Shown: positions 3,422 to 38,123 of the stretch, in pieces
Position numbering within the stretch: the stretch's first letter is position 1
How the letters are laid out: each line of letters starts with the position of its first letter
Virus record (IMG/VR): IMGVR_UViG_3300010214_000033
Location: 1-38,123 of that record
Strand: one strand, 5' to 3'
DNA: 38,123 nucleotides
Origin: a virus
Taxonomy: Duplodnaviria > Caudoviricetes
Position numbers and translations under genes: made by a program
Notes under the pieces: model-generated
The model's database searches: none
What the model saw: the letters and a program-made list of their open reading frames with translations, nothing else
Told to the model about the DNA's origin: nothing

Positions 3422-3829
3422 TCAGCAGCGCACGCCGCGGCTGGCGATTGCGCTGAAATCCAGTGATCCCTGGCGGGGTGGTGTGAATGGCGTGGGCTTG
3501 TAGTCGTCGCTCTTCATCACGTTGATCTGCCGCCGCTCAGGCATTTCGCCCATGGGCTTGGGCGTTCCCTTGCCAGTCCGTCCTGGTGTCAGGCCCAGGT
3601 CAAACAGTGGCGCGGCCACGCTGCAGATGTTCCAGCGCAGCTCTGGTGCGCCCTCCACAATCTCCAGCCAGCCGCCTGTGCGCAGGTTGCGCAGGCGCTT
3701 GACCAGGTCGCTTTCCAGCTCGCCCGTCACCTTGCGCAGCTGCGCAAGGTTCTGCGGGCCATGAGCCTTGATGTGGTCCAGCAGGCGCTTGCTGTCCTCG
3801 CTCAGGCGGTTTTTCTTCAGTGCCATCAC
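3422..3829 (-). CDS. Winged-HTH-like hypothetical protein
   Basis: RLLDHIKAHGPQNLAQLRKVTG...KRLRNLRTGGWLE; C-terminal RQGSLDF..IASRG motif common in phage early proteins. Confidence 0.65.
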   Translation of the reverse strand: MMALKKNRLSEDSKRLLDHIKAHGPQNLAQLRKVTGELESDLVKRLRNLRTGGWLEIVEGAPELRWNICSVAAPLFDLGLTPGRTGKGTPKPMGEMPERRQINVMKSDDYKPTPFTPPRQGSLDFSAIASRGVRC

Positions 3830-4065
3830 ATCACCCCCATTCCCAGTTCAAACTGCACATAGCCCGCCAGCGAACCCAGGCAAGCTGCGGCGGCCGCGAC
3901 CATCGCTCCCAGCAGCAAAAATTGGCCGATGGAGTCAGAGGGATGCCTGCCAAGCGCCGCCTGGAGCAGGCCCTTGAATGCCTGCAGACCGCGCTCCAGG
4001 CGGGCGCGCAGGCCGCGCTTGCGGTAGCACTGGACTGCACCAGGCCCAAAGAAATAGCGCTTCAT
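3826..4065 (-). CDS. Hypothetical membrane protein
   Basis: Coupled by stop/start overlaps; C-terminal hydrophobic stretch. Confidence 0.6.
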   Translation of the reverse strand: MKRYFFGPGAVQCYRKRGLRARLERGLQAFKGLLQAALGRHPSDSIGQFLLLGAMVAAAAACLGSLAGYVQFELGMGVM

Positions 4066-16939: not shown

Positions 16940-18526
16940 ATGGCAAAAAGCATGATTCTGGGCGCTGACGGCCAGCCCATCGACCTGGCCAGCGTGAACA
17001 CACCGCAGACCTCTCAGCTGGGCCATCTACAGCGCGAGCTGCAGAGCCACCCGACCCGAGGCCTCACGCCTTCCAAGCTGGCCACCATCCTGGACGCGGC
17101 CGAGCAAGGCGACCTCACGGCCCAGTTCGACCTGTTTGAGGACATGGAAGAAAAGGACGGCCACATTGCCAGCGAGATGGGCAAGCGCCGCCGAGCGCTG
17201 ATTCTGGACTGGGAGATCACCGCCCCAGACAACGCCAACGCCCAGGAAAAGCGCAACGCTGAGCAACTGGGCGAGCTGGTGCAGTCCATCCCCGACTTTG
17301 AAGACGTGATCTTTGACGCGACCGACGCTATCGGTAAAGGCTTTGCATGCCTTGAAATGGAATGGCACCGGGCCGAGGGCTTCTGGTTGCCGAAGACCCT
17401 CACGCACCGCCCCCAGTCCTGGTTCCAGCTGCACCGTGGTTACCGACAGGAGCTGCGGCTGCGCACCAACACCACGGACGAGCAAGGCATTCAGGGCGCT
17501 CCGCTCACCCCCTTTGGTTGGGTGACCCACATCCACAAGGCTAAAAGCGGCTACATGGAGCGCACAGCGCTGTTCCGCCAGTTGGTCTGGACCTACCTTT
17601 TCAAGAACTACAGCGTGGGCGACCTGGCTGAGTTTCTTGAGATCTACGGCATCCCCGTGCGTCTGGGCAAGTACCCGCCCAATGCCAGTGAGCGCGAGAA
17701 GGCCACGCTGCTGCGTGCCCTGGTGGGCATTGGCCACAACGCGGCCGGCATCATCCCCGAGGGCATGCTCATCGACTTCAAGGACGCCGCCACCGGCGAC
17801 CCCAAGGCGTTTGAGCTGATGATCAGCTGGTGCGAGCGCAACCAGTCCAAGGTCATTCTGGGCGGCACGCTGACCAGTGGCGCAGATGGCGCGGCCAGCA
17901 CCAATGCACTGGGCAATGTTCACAACGAAGTGCGAAAGGACCTGCGCGACGGCGATATCCGCCAGCTCAATGCCACCATCACCCGCGACCTGGTCTATGC
18001 CATCGCCGCCATGAATGGCCTGGCACCCGATGGCATCAAGCGCTGCCCGCGCTTTGGGTTGATCACCGGCGAGACCGAGGACATCCAGGTGCTGTCCGAA
18101 GCCTTGCCCAAGCTGGTGGGCATCGGCGTGCAGGTTCCGCAGGACTGGGCCAACCAGAAGCTGGGCATCCCCATGCCCCAGCCTGGGCAGGTGGTGCTGG
18201 GCGTGACGCCCGTGGTTCAAACTGTGCCTACGGGTACGGCCGCGCTGACGGCAGTTCTGCCTGGCGCTGCAGCTCAGCCGTTGACGGTGGGCCAGACCAT
18301 GCAGCCGCAGCTGGCCAACAACGTGCAGCAAGCCACAAGCCCCTGGTTTGCGCAAATTCGCAAACTTGTCGAGACGGCTACTAGCCTGGAGCAGATCCGC
18401 GACGGGCTAGAGCAGCTCATCCCCAACATGACGCTAGAGCAGTTTGCCCTGGCCATGGGCGAGGCGATGGCTGCCGCTCATCTGGCCGGGCGCTATGAGG
18501 TGCTGCAGGAAGCAGGAGCCCTCTGA
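16940..18526 (+). CDS. Portal protein (DUF935, Mu gp29)
   Basis: GLTPSKLATIL..AEQGD...DMEEKDGH, FLEIYGIPVRLGKY, ALGNVHNEVR; GAGG RBS before ATG 16940. Confidence 0.92.
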   Translation: MAKSMILGADGQPIDLASVNTPQTSQLGHLQRELQSHPTRGLTPSKLATILDAAEQGDLTAQFDLFEDMEEKDGHIASEMGKRRRALILDWEITAPDNANAQEKRNAEQLGELVQSIPDFEDVIFDATDAIGKGFACLEMEWHRAEGFWLPKTLTHRPQSWFQLHRGYRQELRLRTNTTDEQGIQGAPLTPFGWVTHIHKAKSGYMERTALFRQLVWTYLFKNYSVGDLAEFLEIYGIPVRLGKYPPNASEREKATLLRALVGIGHNAAGIIPEGMLIDFKDAATGDPKAFELMISWCERNQSKVILGGTLTSGADGAASTNALGNVHNEVRKDLRDGDIRQLNATITRDLVYAIAAMNGLAPDGIKRCPRFGLITGETEDIQVLSEALPKLVGIGVQVPQDWANQKLGIPMPQPGQVVLGVTPVVQTVPTGTAALTAVLPGAAAQPLTVGQTMQPQLANNVQQATSPWFAQIRKLVETATSLEQIRDGLEQLIPNMTLEQFALAMGEAMAAAHLAGRYEVLQEAGAL

Positions 18527-19773
18527 TGGCCAGCGCCGCGTTTGGGGCCTTGCCCTTCAGAGAGCAGATCGGCTTTTTTCAGCGCAAGCTGAACCTGCCC
18601 ACCACGGCCTGGACGGACATCTACACCCAGGAGCATGACTATGCGTTTGTGGTGGCGGGTGCCAACCGTGACGCCATCGTCTCCGACTTCCGCGCGGCCG
18701 TGGAAAAGGCCATCGTGGACGGCACCACGCTGGAGGAGTTCCGCCGCGACTTTGACCGCATCGTGGCCAAGCACGGCTGGGACTACAACGGCGGCCGCAA
18801 CTGGCGCAGCCGCGTCATCTACGACACCAACCTTGCCACCAGCTATGCGGCGGGCCGCTGGGAGCAATTGCAGCACGCCCCGTACTGGCAGTATCAGCAC
18901 GCGGACTGGGTGGAGCATCCGCGCCCATTGCACCTCTCCTGGAATGGCATGGTCCTGGCCAAGGACGACCCGTTCTGGCAAACCCATTTCCCGCCCAACG
19001 GCTGGGGTTGCCAGTGCAGCGTCAAAGGCTTGTGGAGTCGCGACCTGGAAAAGCTGGGTAAAACCGGGCCTGACCAGGCTCCCGAGGTCAAGTATGCGGA
19101 GCACATCATTGGCGTGCGCAGCCCCAATGGCCCGCGCACGGTCAAGGTGCCAGAGGGCATCGATCCCGGCTTTGAGTACGCGCCAGGCAGCGCCCGCCTG
19201 CGCAGTGCCATCCCGCCAGAGAGGCCAGATCCCCCCGTGCCTGGCAGTGCTGGCGGCCCCGGCCTGCCCAATCAGCGCCCGACCTGGCCTCTGCCACCGC
19301 CGCGTCCCTTTCCCGCTTCAGACCTGCTGCCAGCGGGCCTGCCTGCCGAAGACTACGCCAGCGCCTACCTGGCCAAGTTTGGGGCCACGCTCACTCAGCC
19401 TGCCGTCTACCAGGACGTGATCGGTGAGCGCCTGGTGGTGGGCGCTGACCTGTTTACCGATGCCAAGGGCAACATCAAGGCCACGAAGCGCGACCGCGAG
19501 GTCTTCATGCCCTTGCTGGCCCAGGCCCTGCAGGAACCTGACGAAATCTGGGTACGCCTTGAGTGGATGCACGCCCAGCAAAAGGCAGTGGTGCGCCGCC
19601 GCTATATCGCAAGGTTTCGGGTGGAGGGCGAAGAAACGCCTGCATTGGCCGTGTTTGAGGTCGGCGGCGATGGCTGGGCTGGCGTGACCACATTCCCCGG
19701 AACTGGGCAAAGCGAAGCCGACTGGCGTGTGGGAGTGAATCTGTATCGCCGTCTGCAGGACGACCAGGAATAA
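18526..19773 (+). CDS. MuF (gp30) head morphogenesis protein with a C-terminal PBECR2-like nuclease domain
   Basis: MuF motifs IYDTN..TSY.AGRW, HPRPLH, PPNGWGCQC; extension LLAQALQEPDEIW...RRRYIARF...GW.GVTTF. Confidence 0.85.
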   Translation: MASAAFGALPFREQIGFFQRKLNLPTTAWTDIYTQEHDYAFVVAGANRDAIVSDFRAAVEKAIVDGTTLEEFRRDFDRIVAKHGWDYNGGRNWRSRVIYDTNLATSYAAGRWEQLQHAPYWQYQHADWVEHPRPLHLSWNGMVLAKDDPFWQTHFPPNGWGCQCSVKGLWSRDLEKLGKTGPDQAPEVKYAEHIIGVRSPNGPRTVKVPEGIDPGFEYAPGSARLRSAIPPERPDPPVPGSAGGPGLPNQRPTWPLPPPRPFPASDLLPAGLPAEDYASAYLAKFGATLTQPAVYQDVIGERLVVGADLFTDAKGNIKATKRDREVFMPLLAQALQEPDEIWVRLEWMHAQQKAVVRRRYIARFRVEGEETPALAVFEVGGDGWAGVTTFPGTGQSEADWRVGVNLYRRLQDDQE

Positions 19774-34861: not shown

Positions 34862-35400
34862 TGTATCTGCAATTCCCAGATGAGGCGGCTGCACGCGTTG
34901 CACTGGAGCCTTGGACCGTGGGCAGTGCTCTTCCAGCTTATATCGACACTGCGGCCGTCGATGTTCTTGGCCAGGTTCTGCGGCCGACAGGCGGCATCAT
35001 CCACGGCCCCGACGGAGATGTGCCCGAACTGGCCCCTGTACCTGGCTGGCATATCAATTTGTCCGAGCGTGTTTCTGAGCTGGAGCCTTACGAAATGGCT
35101 GCCCCGGCGACTCCAGACCGCGTGTTTGCGGGTAGCGATGCCGTCCAGACCCCGCGTGTGCCTGCCAAGGTGACCCGCCGCCAAGCGCGCCAGGCGCTGG
35201 CCATGGAGGGGCTTCTGGGCAGCGTGCAGCCTGCGATTGACGCCATTTCTGACCCCTTGCAGCGTCAGCTGGCGCAGATCGAATGGGACGACAGCCAGGA
35301 CTTTGAGCGCGACCGGCCCTTGCTGATTCAACTGGGGCACGCCATCGGTCTGACCGATGCGGGCATTGACGCTTTGTTCATTCGAGCAGGAGGCCTGTGA
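34858..35400 (+). CDS. Tail fibre accessory protein
   Basis: ATGA overlap, GGAGG RBS; GWHINL...P.TP.RVFAG then VPAKVTRRQARQAL...IEW...IDALF. Confidence 0.7.
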   Translation: MMYLQFPDEAAARVALEPWTVGSALPAYIDTAAVDVLGQVLRPTGGIIHGPDGDVPELAPVPGWHINLSERVSELEPYEMAAPATPDRVFAGSDAVQTPRVPAKVTRRQARQALAMEGLLGSVQPAIDAISDPLQRQLAQIEWDDSQDFERDRPLLIQLGHAIGLTDAGIDALFIRAGGL

Positions 35401-35927
35401 TGCTCTTGGCCAGCTACAAATCCACCCGCCCAGGGCTGCAAGGCCTGTTCAATCGCATCATCCGGCTGCGCCTGCGCGGCCAATACAGCCACTCGGAGGT
35501 GGTGTTTGAGCCTGGTGACGGTGTTGACCACCTCATGCCAGATGGCTCTGCAGCCCCTGGCCTGGATGGCTCCTTGTGGTGCGCATCCAGCGTTGCGGCC
35601 GAGGCTTTGCCCGAGTTTTCTCAACGCAGGGCAGGCAAAACAGGCGGCGTGCGCTTCAAGCGTGTGGTGCTCGACCCCAGCCGCTGGGATGTGGTCAAGG
35701 TCAACCTGGGCCCCGTGGCCACGGCCCAATGGTTCAAGGCACATGAGGGAGAGTTGTACGACTGGCAGCTGATTCTGGGCTTCATCAGTTGGGCTATTCC
35801 CCAGAAAGACCAGCGCTGGACCTGCAGTGAGGCCTGCGCAGCAGCTCTGGGTATCCCAGAGACAGAGGCATGGCGTTTAGACCCATGCGACATCCTGGCC
35901 ACGACTAGCGCCTGGGCAACCAGGTAG
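35397..35927 (+). CDS. Permuted papain-like (NlpC/P60-related) protein
   Basis: YSHSE (His), G.LYDW, RWTCSE (Cys), in His-before-Cys order. Confidence 0.65.
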   Translation: MMLLASYKSTRPGLQGLFNRIIRLRLRGQYSHSEVVFEPGDGVDHLMPDGSAAPGLDGSLWCASSVAAEALPEFSQRRAGKTGGVRFKRVVLDPSRWDVVKVNLGPVATAQWFKAHEGELYDWQLILGFISWAIPQKDQRWTCSEACAAALGIPETEAWRLDPCDILATTSAWATR

Positions 35928-35928
35928 C

Positions 35929-36032
35929 AAAAAAGACGGGCGACCTGGTCAAGTGCGCTAACACCTGGCCAAGCCCCCGACCCGCAGATTGGGCCTGCAA
36001 GTCAGGCGAAGACCCGCCGCTCTCGAGAGCCC
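35929..36032 (-). ncRNA. Candidate antisense RNA / structured leader upstream of com
   Basis: Minus strand TAGACT (36038-36043), long hairpin topped by GTGTTAGCGCAC, followed by T6. Confidence 0.4.
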
Positions 36033-36072
36033 GGCAAGTCTATCGTCTTTCAACAGTTGAAACTGGCTTGCA

Positions 36073-36246
36073 ATGAATGAAATTAGGTGCGGCAGCTGCC
36101 GCCGCAAACTGGCCGAGGGCGAATACATCCGCCTCACCATCAAATGCCCCCGCTGTGGAGCATTCAATCAGCTGAGCGCCCAGAGCGCCTTTCCCGAACG
36201 CCCTAGAGCGTCTACCGAAGGGAAAGAACGTGGCAAAAACCACTGA
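36073..36246 (+). CDS. com: Com-family zinc-finger translational activator (57 aa, absent from the ORF track)
   Basis: MNEIRCGSCRRKLAEGEYIRLTIKCPRCGAFN: CxxC...CPRC; at the right end as in Mu. Confidence 0.9.
   Translation: MNEIRCGSCRRKLAEGEYIRLTIKCPRCGAFNQLSAQSAFPERPRASTEGKERGKNH
36174..36232 (+). promoter_or_regulatory. Putative Com target and RBS-sequestering hairpin
   Basis: Four GARCGYC heptamers; CTTTCCC (36189-36195) complementary to GGGAAAG (36220-36226) just before GTG 36230. Confidence 0.65.
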
Positions 36247-36400
36247 GACAGGAAAAACGGGCCAGCGCCCAGGAGAAAACGGGTTCAAGTACCGGCCCCA
36301 GTTCGGGCTGGTAATCAACTGCAAAGACGAATCTGAGCAGCAAAAAATCTATGCCAGGCTGACGAAGCAAGGCCTCAAGCTGAAGGTGGTGTGCGTATGA
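36230..36400 (+). CDS. Small hypothetical protein (56 aa, absent from the ORF track)
   Basis: GTG start overlapping com; ...FKYRPQFGLVINCKDESEQQKIYARLTKQGLKLKVVCV; ATGA-coupled to the next gene. Confidence 0.75.
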   Translation: MAKTTETGKTGQRPGENGFKYRPQFGLVINCKDESEQQKIYARLTKQGLKLKVVCV

Positions 36401-37530
36401 AGCTCAGCATTCAACACAGCTGCACGGACTTCGACAGCTACCGTGCAGCCCGCGTGAAATCGCTGTTCAACGTCGAGTCTGGCGCGAATTTCTCCCTTGA
36501 AGCGGAGCTGGACGTAGAGTGCGCGCCCTGGCAAATCGGCGTGATCGTTGGTCCCAGTGGCTCCGGCAAAACCAGCATGGGCCGTCAATTCTGGGGCGCA
36601 GAGGCCATCTACAACCCCCAGTGGCCTTCTGACCAGCCCGTGATTGATGCCATCGACCCCCATGGCAGCTTTGATGCGGCCACCGCCGCTCTCTCTAGTG
36701 TGGGCTTGGGTAGCGTGCCGACCTGGCTGCGCCCATTTACCGTCCTGTCCAATGGAGAGCAGTTCCGCGCCAACCTGGCCAGGCTGATCGCGGAGGCACC
36801 AGCCCAAGCGGTGCTGGATGAGTTTTCCAGCGTGGTGGACCGCCAGATTGCCCAAATTGGCGCGGGCGCGTTTGCCAAGGCCTGGCGGCGTACAGGCGGG
36901 CAGGCAGTCCTCTTGAGCTGCCATTACGACATCCTTGACTGGGTGCAGCCAGACTGGGTCTTTGATACAGCCACAGGGCAGTTCACACGGGGGTGGCTTC
37001 GGCAGCGGCCACGCATTGACATGGAAATCCACCAATGCGGCTGGGAACACTGGCCGGTATTTGAGCCGCATCACTATCTGAAGCTGCCCAGGATGATCGC
37101 CGCAACCAACTATGTGGCCACGGTGAACGGCCAGCTCGTGGCCCACCTGGCCGTGAGCACGCGCAGCCGCACCGAAGCCAGGGCTTGCCGCCTGGTGGTC
37201 ATGCCTGAATGGCAGGGAGCTGGCGTGGGCCTGCGCTTCCTGGACGCTGTCTGCGAAATGTGGCGCACGGGGAATAACCGGTACGAGAGGCCCATGCTGA
37301 CCCTGTTCCATACCAGTCATCCGGGGCTGGCCAGCGCGTTACGGCGCTCCGGCCGATGGACGCAGGTATCTGCCGCCCTGGTCGGGGAAAGCAAAGCCAG
37401 GTGCATGGAAAGCATTAAGCGGTCTCACCAACGCGCCGGTGACGGCGGCTTTAGGGGCGGCACTGGCTACGGCGGCCACTTTCGGGCAGTTCAAGGGTTT
37501 CGCTACTTGGGGGAGGCACCATGCGCGTGA
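36397..37530 (+). CDS. ABC-type ATPase fused to a GNAT acyltransferase domain (mom-position gene)
   Basis: GPSGSGKT, LSNGEQFR, VLDEF, LSCH; GNAT motif A RLVVMPEWQGAGVG. Confidence 0.88.
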   Translation: MKLSIQHSCTDFDSYRAARVKSLFNVESGANFSLEAELDVECAPWQIGVIVGPSGSGKTSMGRQFWGAEAIYNPQWPSDQPVIDAIDPHGSFDAATAALSSVGLGSVPTWLRPFTVLSNGEQFRANLARLIAEAPAQAVLDEFSSVVDRQIAQIGAGAFAKAWRRTGGQAVLLSCHYDILDWVQPDWVFDTATGQFTRGWLRQRPRIDMEIHQCGWEHWPVFEPHHYLKLPRMIAATNYVATVNGQLVAHLAVSTRSRTEARACRLVVMPEWQGAGVGLRFLDAVCEMWRTGNNRYERPMLTLFHTSHPGLASALRRSGRWTQVSAALVGESKARCMESIKRSHQRAGDGGFRGGTGYGGHFRAVQGFRYLGEAPCA

Positions 37531-38123
37531 TGATCATTGGCCAGCGCTGGCTGGCGGCCGAATTGTTCAAGCTGTGCCAGGCGCGTGGCGACGATATCGC
37601 GGCGGTTTCCTCGCCCCGCATGGATGACCGGCTTGCCATTGAAGCCGCAAGGGCGGGCGTCCCTGTGTGCCAGGTCACCGGCCGCCTGAGCGCCGACTGG
37701 GTGCCTGACGGTGTTGACCTGCTGCTCTGCGCGCATGCCCATATATATATAGAGGCTGGTGCCAGGGCCAAGGCTCGGCTGGGGGCGCTGGGCTATCACC
37801 CCAGCCTATTGCCACGGCATAGAGGCCGCGACGCGGTGCGCTGGGCCATTCATATGGGCGACAAGGTGACTGGCGGCTCTGCTTACTGGATGGATGATGG
37901 CGCGGACACAGGCCCCATCGCTGCTCAGGAGTGGTGCTGGGTTCAGCCTGGCGATACGCCAGCAGAGCTTTGGCGTAGGGATCTGGCCCCCATGGGCCTG
38001 CGCCTGTTTGAGACGGCCCTCTCTAATATAGATTGGGGCGCTTCCAAATCGGTCCCCCAGTTGGAAGCCATGGCCACCTGGGAGCCTGCATTCATTTCAA
38101 AGAGCTTGAGCGCTCAGAAGTGA
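37521..38123 (+). CDS. Stand-alone formyltransferase (Fmt/PurN N-terminal domain)
   Basis: YHPSLLPRHRG, TGGSAYWMDDGADTGPI; GGAGG RBS; 10-nt overlap with the previous gene; no Fmt C-terminal domain. Confidence 0.9.
   Translation: MRVMIIGQRWLAAELFKLCQARGDDIAAVSSPRMDDRLAIEAARAGVPVCQVTGRLSADWVPDGVDLLLCAHAHIYIEAGARAKARLGALGYHPSLLPRHRGRDAVRWAIHMGDKVTGGSAYWMDDGADTGPIAAQEWCWVQPGDTPAELWRRDLAPMGLRLFETALSNIDWGASKSVPQLEAMATWEPAFISKSLSAQK

Follow-up and report, generated by a model that had tools for sequence, protein, structure and literature searches.

Background

Phage Mu's Mom enzyme uses Gly-tRNA(Gly) as its donor and depends on the residues H58, Y59 and R111 and on a basic insertion (PMC13219725); the same source describes TmcA, in which an ATPase is coupled with a GNAT domain that acetylates tRNA. 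The published motif of the regulator Com, GAG-N2-CC-N2-3-GAG-N2-CC, forms a short hairpin beside a translation-inhibiting structure (PMC6483171), and in other Mu-like phages the position of mom is occupied by methylases (PMC3299994). That a GNAT domain joined to an ABC ATPase would acylate a base in DNA was predicted in 2013 by Iyer, Zhang, Burroughs and Aravind, as stated by the authors of PMC7824862, who cite Tenacibaculum pT24 (QAX98348.1) as an example. Three genes of phage phiE255, counterparts of those discussed here, were listed in 2010, unlinked and without function (PMC2920897). Here we analyse positions 36073-38123 of a 38,123-nt virus contig (IMG/VR record IMGVR_UViG_3300010214_000033; "the window" below is this whole contig), where a com gene is followed by a cassette of three genes encoding a 56-residue protein, an ABC-ATPase/GNAT fusion (ABC-GNAT) and a formyltransferase. 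The cassette probably serves to acylate DNA, and we tentatively propose that the group it transfers is a formyl group.

Gene layout and the Com operator

The four open reading frames (ORFs) lie on the plus strand and are chained by overlaps. The features of the locus are as follows:

35928-36072, plus strand: conserved non-coding leader, common to methylase-type and ABC-GNAT-type com loci (30-locus alignment)
36073-36246, plus strand: com, zinc-ribbon translational activator, 57 aa (PF10122, E 2e-15; phrog_6417, E 3e-23)
36174-36189, plus strand: Com-operator hairpin 1, which matches exactly the bipartite motif GAG-N2-CC-N2-GAG-N2-CC selected in vitro by SELEX (PMC6483171); covariation
36196-36212, plus strand: Com-operator hairpin 2, 4-bp stem and 6-nt loop (tandem pattern, fold, inverted repeat I9, covariation)
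36230-36400, plus strand: small ORF, 56 aa, with a GTG start inside com (ORF list, profile matches)
36397-37530, plus strand: ABC-ATPase/GNAT fusion, 377 aa, its ATG overlapping the stop of the small ORF (Pfam ABC_tran and GNAT models)
37521-38123, plus strand: single-domain formyltransferase, 200 aa, predicted formyl-CoA generator (PF00551, E 8e-19)

An earlier sequence-only reading of this DNA had seen com with three overlapping ORFs behind it, the motifs of an ABC ATPase fused to a GNAT domain, and a formyltransferase with an HPSLLP motif; all of this is borne out by the ORF coordinates, by the Pfam and profile matches and by the motifs located in the sequence. The formyltransferase gene starts within the end of the ABC-GNAT gene, overlapping its stop, and the record ends with the stop codon of the formyltransferase gene itself. 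The order of the cassette is not due to chance, since it recurs in many loci, the ratio of nonsynonymous to synonymous substitution rates (dN/dS) is low, and independent contigs cover it. Against six homologues per gene, and with synonymous sites close to saturation, dN/dS is 0.09-0.13 for ABC-GNAT, 0.14-0.23 for the formyltransferase and 0.19-0.36 for the small ORF, while contigs from four sequencing runs belonging to four studies span the stretch (29-30 of 30 bins); no RNA run was listed among the runs containing it.

The sequence-only reading had also placed the cassette under the control of Com, for which two operator hairpins, their tandem pattern and their covariation now speak. Hairpin 2 resembles the native Mu site and is nested in a stem, the 3' arm of which, at 36220-36226, doubles as the purine-rich ribosome site that serves the small ORF; the fold z-score of this stem, -2.07, is modest. 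The relaxed three-spacer tandem pattern has a single match on both strands of the whole window, at 36196. Tandem Com patterns were found in 22 of 41 com loci, in 1 of 22 other loci and in 1 of 2663 background windows, and the sole non-com locus with the pattern nevertheless gave a com match in a separate search. Across 21 loci, selected for having com, pairing in the two operator stems reaches 98.8% and two-sided changes number 14, exceeding every slid control. The sequence hallmarks of a Com-controlled operon are found together: a zinc-ribbon com gene and a bipartite hairpin motif located before the next start, beside a structure that masks translation signals. By analogy with Mu, Com would activate translation of the small ORF, and the cassette is likely to be a late, Com-gated module. 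The leader (35928-36072), for which RNAalifold gives 18 pairs, 9 of them with two-sided change, in the 30 aligned loci, may hold a late promoter and further RNA control; no Rfam match at E<=1 was obtained in 35880-36280, and no sigma-70 promoter was found in 35800-36300.

Cargo of the com slot

Among the 72 loci (66 unique) retrieved with the Com of the window, a homologue of a DNA methyltransferase follows com in 63 of the 66, including 40 Dam-like, 21 N6/N4 and 2 C5 enzymes, in agreement with the earlier reading of this position as a mom/methylase slot. Four representatives were confirmed by Pfam, and one of the 63 genes looks broken. One of the remaining three loci carries the ABC-GNAT cassette and two carry other genes. 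Five methylase loci match the window until 36187-36189, the 3' edge of operator hairpin 1, and then diverge, and in three sequencing runs (X1, X3 and X4) contigs leave the window at 36189, with the com region covered more deeply than the cassette. The single viral contig with the motif of the loose ends at 36189 has a near-identical com followed by a Dam-like gene (L291/L361). Because of these shared breakpoints at the operator, the contigs from the runs and the predominance of methyltransferases among the com loci, we conclude from the sequences that the cassette and the methylases are alternative cargo of one operator. As a side observation, phages with near-identical com and different cargo seem to share samples, with the switch point at the end of hairpin 1.

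This exchange is the strongest, yet indirect, argument for DNA as the target of the cassette. Since the trio is conserved (see below), the operator hairpins covary and methyltransferases fill the same slot, modification of DNA, suggested as the most likely function already by the sequence-only reading, remains the favoured one, and DNA acylation of some kind is probably the job of the cassette.

Conservation and distribution

The three genes, whose recurrence in other phages had been anticipated, do keep company. Of 106 close viral loci, 98 have the small gene ahead of ABC-GNAT and 77 have com ahead of it; the corresponding figures for 79 loci from bacterial genomes with room upstream are 73 and 53. 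Where at least 300 bases follow ABC-GNAT, the formyltransferase lies behind it in 145 of 160 close loci (74/80 viral and 71/80 genomic), and the downstream genes that recur in related loci are terminase subunits only. The ABC-GNAT family comprises 532 clusters (50% identity, E<=1e-30), occurs in 63 of 50,697 phage records, and is highly conserved across phages of Proteobacteria, Actinobacteria and Bacteroidetes; the 14 strongest matches to the formyltransferase in the same 50,697 records all come from records that hold ABC-GNAT. Cultured carriers with the formyltransferase include phiE255, Komp_PAO1_1, ten phages of Gordonia and five prophages of Porphyromonas, and cultured ABC-GNAT carriers without a match to it include P335, phiNIH1.1, PX29 and pT24.

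In a tree of 141 non-redundant close homologues, which after the length filter retains only 2 PX29-type proteins and is informative for the close clade only, the formyltransferase is missing in 12 members at several separate places (10 label changes over the whole tree). In the distant PX29-type clade it is missing in 77 of 77 loci, and neither the small gene nor com occurs in any of 78. No single partner dominates at the PX29-type loci: of 80 loci, partly redundant, 10 have Mom-like genes and 7 have methylases.

Several observations on individual loci may be added. Mom-like genes adjoin or sit near ABC-GNAT in L100, L101, L102, L112, L116 and five more PX29-type loci. Locus L061, which is devoid of the formyltransferase, has a minus-strand frame (3472-4029) behind ABC-GNAT, convergent with it and ASCH-like by eye. 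One ABC-GNAT homologue (P0379) is split by an intein with a LAGLIDADG domain. In phiE255 an unannotated com-like frame, similar to the com of B3, precedes gp28 (L081, about 2640-2860).

The ABC-GNAT fusion

The two-domain AlphaFold2 model of the fusion has a mean predicted local distance difference test score (pLDDT) of 90.9, with the ABC domain at about residues 1-202 and the GNAT domain at about 204-377 (nucleotide 37006 on), of which 206-373 was compared by fold. We located GPSGSGKT (52-59), LSNGE (117-121), AVLDE (138-142), SCH (174-176) and QGAGVG (273-278), which we take to be Walker A, the ABC signature, Walker B, the H-loop and GNAT motif A, respectively. In an alignment of 98 sequences every ATPase motif is conserved, and likewise motif A, which binds coenzyme A (CoA): Q273-G274 is invariant in 98/98 and QGxGx(G/A) is present in 94/98. 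The net charge of the GNAT domain is positive in all 98 sequences, with a median of +12, much as in 7 Mom-type proteins, which speaks for a link to DNA; the ABC domain is slightly acidic. The top fold matches of the GNAT domain (VIA-align, Z 13-15) are N-acetyltransferases, several of them solved with acetyl-CoA or CoA. Foldseek results for the two-domain model were filled by ABC domains, ESM Atlas returned only unnamed or generic viral GNAT clusters, and PADLOC gave only weak matches to the ABC motifs.

Judged by position, some residues of the GNAT domain may correspond to features of Mom: H226 (conserved in at least 90%), the invariant Y227 and R265, and a basic segment at 326-363. The profile of 34 GNAT sequences, however, misses Mom (8bv8) at E<=10, whereas a Mom-like profile finds it at 2e-4; hhalign gives a probability of 1.4%, and no ABC-GNAT member matches the Mom PHROG at E<=0.05. 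Membership of the Mom family was rejected, as there is no profile relationship to Mu Mom. Of the structure comparisons envisaged by the sequence-only reading, the one with Fmt returned a match to the formyltransferase (see below), and Mom was absent from the 50 matches listed in the wide VIA fold search with the two-domain model. Since motif A is intact here, whereas Mom uses Gly-tRNA and has no QGxGxG at what appears to be the matching place, the donor of the GNAT domain is inferred to be an acyl-CoA; the intact motif argues against Gly-tRNA as donor and N6-carbamoylmethyl-deoxyadenosine (6-NcmdA) as product.

The 56-residue protein

In a set of 19 proteins, the profile of the small protein matches the C-terminal part of ParB-like proteins that stand at the head of the cassette elsewhere, such as gp1 of Gordonia phage Axumite (E 6e-19) and Orf23 of P335 (E 2e-5). 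Cassette copies outside the Mu-like phages that have such a ParB-like leader adjoin terminase. In P0263 and P0316, ParB, the small domain, ABC and GNAT form a single chain (ParB was named by Pfam in P0316 only, the other assignments being made by eye), and a Porphyromonas phage gene labelled 'acr candidate' (L085, 2376-2504) encodes the same small adaptor domain (E 2e-15). The 56-residue protein is thus likely, judging from these similarities, to be an adaptor of the ATPase, the docking part of a DNA-targeting subunit.

The formyltransferase

The model of the formyltransferase has a pLDDT of 94.6. HPSLLP begins at H93, and H93, S95 and D129 are invariant in 54 sequences, in which the net charge is near neutral (-4 to +4). 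The top six PDB matches in phmmer are to the 10-formyltetrahydrofolate (10-formyl-THF) dehydrogenase FDH/ALDH1L1 (E 5e-26 to 6e-24, residues 1-189), while WbkC (2e-15) and Fmt (3e-13) follow at roughly nine or more orders of magnitude behind FDH. Identity in the fold alignments is 34-35% to FDH and 24-28% to Fmt. The 200 residues cover positions 4-219 of chains of 303-314 residues, so that the C-terminal subdomain is missing; the His, Ser, Asp and Arg are kept, and the aromatic W187 stands at the position of Tyr200 of FDH. Two residues before the His there is a Gly (G91): the Asn expected there is missing in 120/120 close homologues and in 148/148 scorable copies from the loci (3 were not scorable), and is present in 6/6 host control formyltransferases.

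This Asn is reported to be crucial in Fmt, ArnA and GART, whereas FDH has Ile there and needs attack by a thiol; the FDH N-terminal domain on its own is a thiol-dependent hydrolase (PMC4388273). In FDH the formyl group is passed to phosphopantetheine (PMC8748788), and for HypX formation of formyl-CoA has been proposed without direct proof (PMC6802093). A true Fmt was ruled out, given the missing catalytic Asn and C-terminal domain and an Fmt NCBIfam score of 54.5 bits against a cut-off of 201.5; PurN was rejected as well. Because a neutral, thiol-type formyl enzyme sits behind a GNAT with a CoA motif, the formyltransferase reads best as the predicted supplier of the donor, formyl-CoA, for the GNAT domain.

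The 120 best longer relatives have ACT, ABC or GNAT domains besides the formyltransferase, or none. The closest cellular relatives are formyltransferase-ACT-ACT proteins (42-51% identity) that share the Gly. This family (P0394-P0510; L282-L288) of proteins of about 380 aa with the Asn-to-Gly change was met in 7 of 121 sampled genomes.

Proposed mechanism and its alternatives

It is tempting to combine these elements, namely the gene order, the operator hairpins, the exchange with methylases, the intact ATPase and CoA motifs and the FDH-type active site, all of which are read from the sequence, into a single scheme. Late transcription and Com would open the small ORF, and the gene overlaps would couple translation of the next two genes. 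The FDH-type enzyme would then take the formyl group from 10-formyl-THF and place it on CoA, and the basic GNAT domain would transfer it from formyl-CoA to a base of the DNA, at an exocyclic amine (A-N6 or C-N4). The ABC domain is predicted to drive engagement of the DNA, as an ATP-driven clamp or in a step that exposes the base, helped by the 56-residue adaptor, and ABC-GNAT would likely act as an ATP-bridged dimer with the adaptor. Expressed late and gated by Com, the cassette would likely protect progeny DNA. At loci devoid of the formyltransferase, the GNAT domain could use acetyl-CoA or another acyl-CoA of the host. We put forward the relay from formyl-THF through formyl-CoA to an N-formyl base installed by GNAT as the best, if tentative, model, whose chances we place a little short of even. 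The more general view, in which a widespread phage pathway combines an ALDH1L1-like source of formyl-CoA with an ATP-powered ABC-GNAT so as to place N-formyl bases in double-stranded DNA, while clades devoid of the formyltransferase have an acetyl variant, is offered still more tentatively.

Several points weigh against the formyl scheme. The modified base, the activity and the protection are all predicted from sequence, models and gene context; beyond the motifs themselves, we infer the DNA substrate, CoA as acceptor, the formyl group, the identity of the base and the ATP-driven step. The formyltransferase is dispensable, being absent from the 12 close homologues and from the whole PX29-type clade mentioned above. 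Two triple fusions of ABC, GNAT and formyltransferase exist, which would speak for the relay, but each is a single sequence and these singletons may be frameshift artefacts. Fold comparison does not separate FDH (Z 28.8) from Fmt (Z 27.8) at the resolution of the aligner; sequence alone does so. The closest cellular relatives, the ACT-ACT proteins, had no conserved neighbours or common pathway in 7 loci. The best fold matches of the GNAT domain include the protein N-acetyltransferases RimI and Ard1, its profile has no significant match to Mom, and the charge of 7 Mom-type proteins (+9 to +16), similar as it is, was compared without a protein-targeting GNAT as control. Moreover, formyl-CoA is easily hydrolysed, as are N-formyl nucleobases, and this sits uneasily with a mark meant to last on virion DNA.

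The alternative that survives best also has DNA as the target, with acetyl-CoA, or else an aminoacyl compound, as the donor of the GNAT domain and with the formyltransferase acting separately or later, including in a two-step N-formylation. The evidence from the slot and from Com control applies to it equally, the repeated loss of the formyltransferase and its absence from the PX29 clade imply that the GNAT domain can work alone, and the HY pair, the Arg of strand beta-4 and the late basic insertion resemble by position the H58/Y59/R111 and insertion of Mom. However, the formyltransferase has neither the amine-type Asn nor a C-terminal nucleic-acid domain and is near neutral, the CoA motif is missing in Mom, the resemblance to Mom is non-significant, and an acetylated base would presumably have no free amine left to formylate. 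We therefore consider this alternative unlikely, if deserving of attention, and its aminoacyl version, transfer by GNAT followed by N-formylation, which the sequence-only reading had given as an example, is disfavoured by the Gly in place of the catalytic Asn, by FDH as the closest relative, by the canonical CoA motif and by the missing profile match to Mom.

Late in infection, the GNAT domain could instead acylate a protein of the host, a tRNA or another RNA, e.g. disabling a defence enzyme or translation, with the ATPase recognizing or remodelling the target. The protein N-acetyltransferases among the top fold matches are in keeping with this, as is TmcA with its coupling of ATPase and GNAT in tRNA acetylation (PMC13219725); the basic surface would suit RNA as well as DNA, and records of Porphyromonas phages call the small gene 'acr candidate'. 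On the other hand, the near-exclusive swap with DNA methyltransferases at one operator, the ParB fusions and the position adjoining terminase all point to DNA, late timing of the Com type would fit the marking of progeny DNA rather than early counter-defence, and conservation across phages of three bacterial phyla favours a universal target. We regard a protein or RNA target as unlikely as well, and place it second among the alternatives.

According to a third possibility the formyltransferase is a hydrolase of 10-formyl-THF, only loosely tied to ABC-GNAT, that shifts the one-carbon pools of the host towards more THF or formate and less formylmethionyl-tRNA. The isolated N-terminal domain of FDH does have such a thiol-dependent activity, and the ACT-ACT architecture of the closest cellular relatives, a further point against formyl-CoA synthesis, recalls what we take to be that of the hydrolase PurU. 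This is nevertheless improbable, given that the gene sits directly behind ABC-GNAT in 145 of 160 loci, here even overlapping its stop, and that the 14 strongest matches among phage records all come from records with ABC-GNAT. The fourth possibility, a moron that encodes a subunit of an ABC transporter, the role suggested for gp29 of phiE255 (PMC2920897) and in line with an ABC fold and motifs matching transporter ATPases, was rejected as very improbable, since by eye no membrane partner such as a permease recurs in the 40 top clusters of neighbours from 186 loci, NCBIfam transporter scores are all far under the cut-off, a GNAT domain is fused and the Com operator is present.

If, as the DNA-acylation reading has it, ABC-GNAT acylates DNA, it would be a third way, beside Mom and the methylases, of protecting the DNA of Mu-like phages, probably with a new base; the complete scheme would add a formyl-CoA-dependent GNAT and a DNA-modifying enzyme with an ABC ATPase for its motor. 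The formyl route would yield a nucleoside heavier by 28 Da, prone to hydrolysis and possibly lost in standard digests. Cultured carriers are available, e.g. the Gordonia cluster DR phages.

The element and neighbouring genes

The element is Mu-like, with a transposase, an AAA_22 ATPase, and Mu portal, Mu F and Mu protease proteins, and com follows the tail genes. The nearest named homologue of the formyltransferase comes from Comamonas testosteroni (96%), which suggests Comamonas as the host genus. The Mu F-like head protein is fused to a PBECR2 nuclease domain (window positions 18526-19773; PF18810, E 1e-28). A 176-aa gene directly before the leader (35397-35927) belongs to phrog_1128, and in 13 loci related genes are found upstream of the cassette; the His and Cys motifs of the 176-aa protein resemble, by eye, a permuted papain-type enzyme. 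Close to the left end, a 199-aa ORF on the minus strand (411-1010) gives a weak AbiGi match (E 0.008, below the cut-off).

Comparison with known systems

With Mu com-mom the locus shares Com, the operator hairpins, the overlap with the next start, the right-end position and the GNAT fold; it differs in that Mom is one enzyme, whereas the cassette comprises three genes and brings with it an ATPase and a CoA motif. The com-linked methyltransferases (FluMu Hin1523, Pnm1, B3 ORF48) occupy the same slot under the same control and are exchangeable with the cassette among close relatives, but each is a single enzyme for S-adenosylmethionine-dependent methylation, unrelated to the cassette proteins.

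The formyltransferase shares with the N-terminal domain of FDH/ALDH1L1 the fold, the His106/Ser108/Asp142 triad and a residue other than Asn at 104. FDH has the aromatic Tyr200 and passes formyl to the thiol of pantetheine; the cassette enzyme has W187, and its predicted thiol acceptor is suggested by this similarity. It differs from FDH, at 34-35% identity, in having no ACP, ALDH or C-terminal subdomain. HypX's N-terminal domain stands further off (Z about 21-22, 21% identity) and is accompanied by a crotonase domain that the cassette enzyme does not have. TmcA/NAT10 resembles ABC-GNAT in combining an ATPase with an acyl-CoA GNAT that acts on a nucleobase amine (of RNA cytidine), but its ATPase is of the helicase type, its substrate is RNA, and the motif-A matches are non-significant (E 0.44 and 1.2).

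The closest precedent is the ABC-GNAT system predicted in 2013, which shares with the cassette the phage ABC-GNAT fusion and the predicted function. A homologue in pT24 was recovered by tblastn (31.8% over residues 5-318, E 9e-44). The passage of PMC7824862 on the prediction names no formyltransferase, adaptor or Com control, and the PX29-type ABC-GNATs lack all three (0 of 77-78 loci). A literature search, which left out most subscription papers, found no biochemical characterisation of the family, and the Gordonia DR paper does not mention the cassette genes. The novelty seen by the sequence-only reading is therefore reduced in one respect, as acylation of a DNA base by the ABC-GNAT core had been predicted and the phiE255 trio listed in 2010, and stands in the other, as no characterised relative was encountered. 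In summary, the cassette is a real, probably Com-gated variant of the ABC-GNAT family until now predicted on paper, and most likely a DNA-acylation system that takes the place held by Mom in Mu and by methylases in other Mu-like phages.

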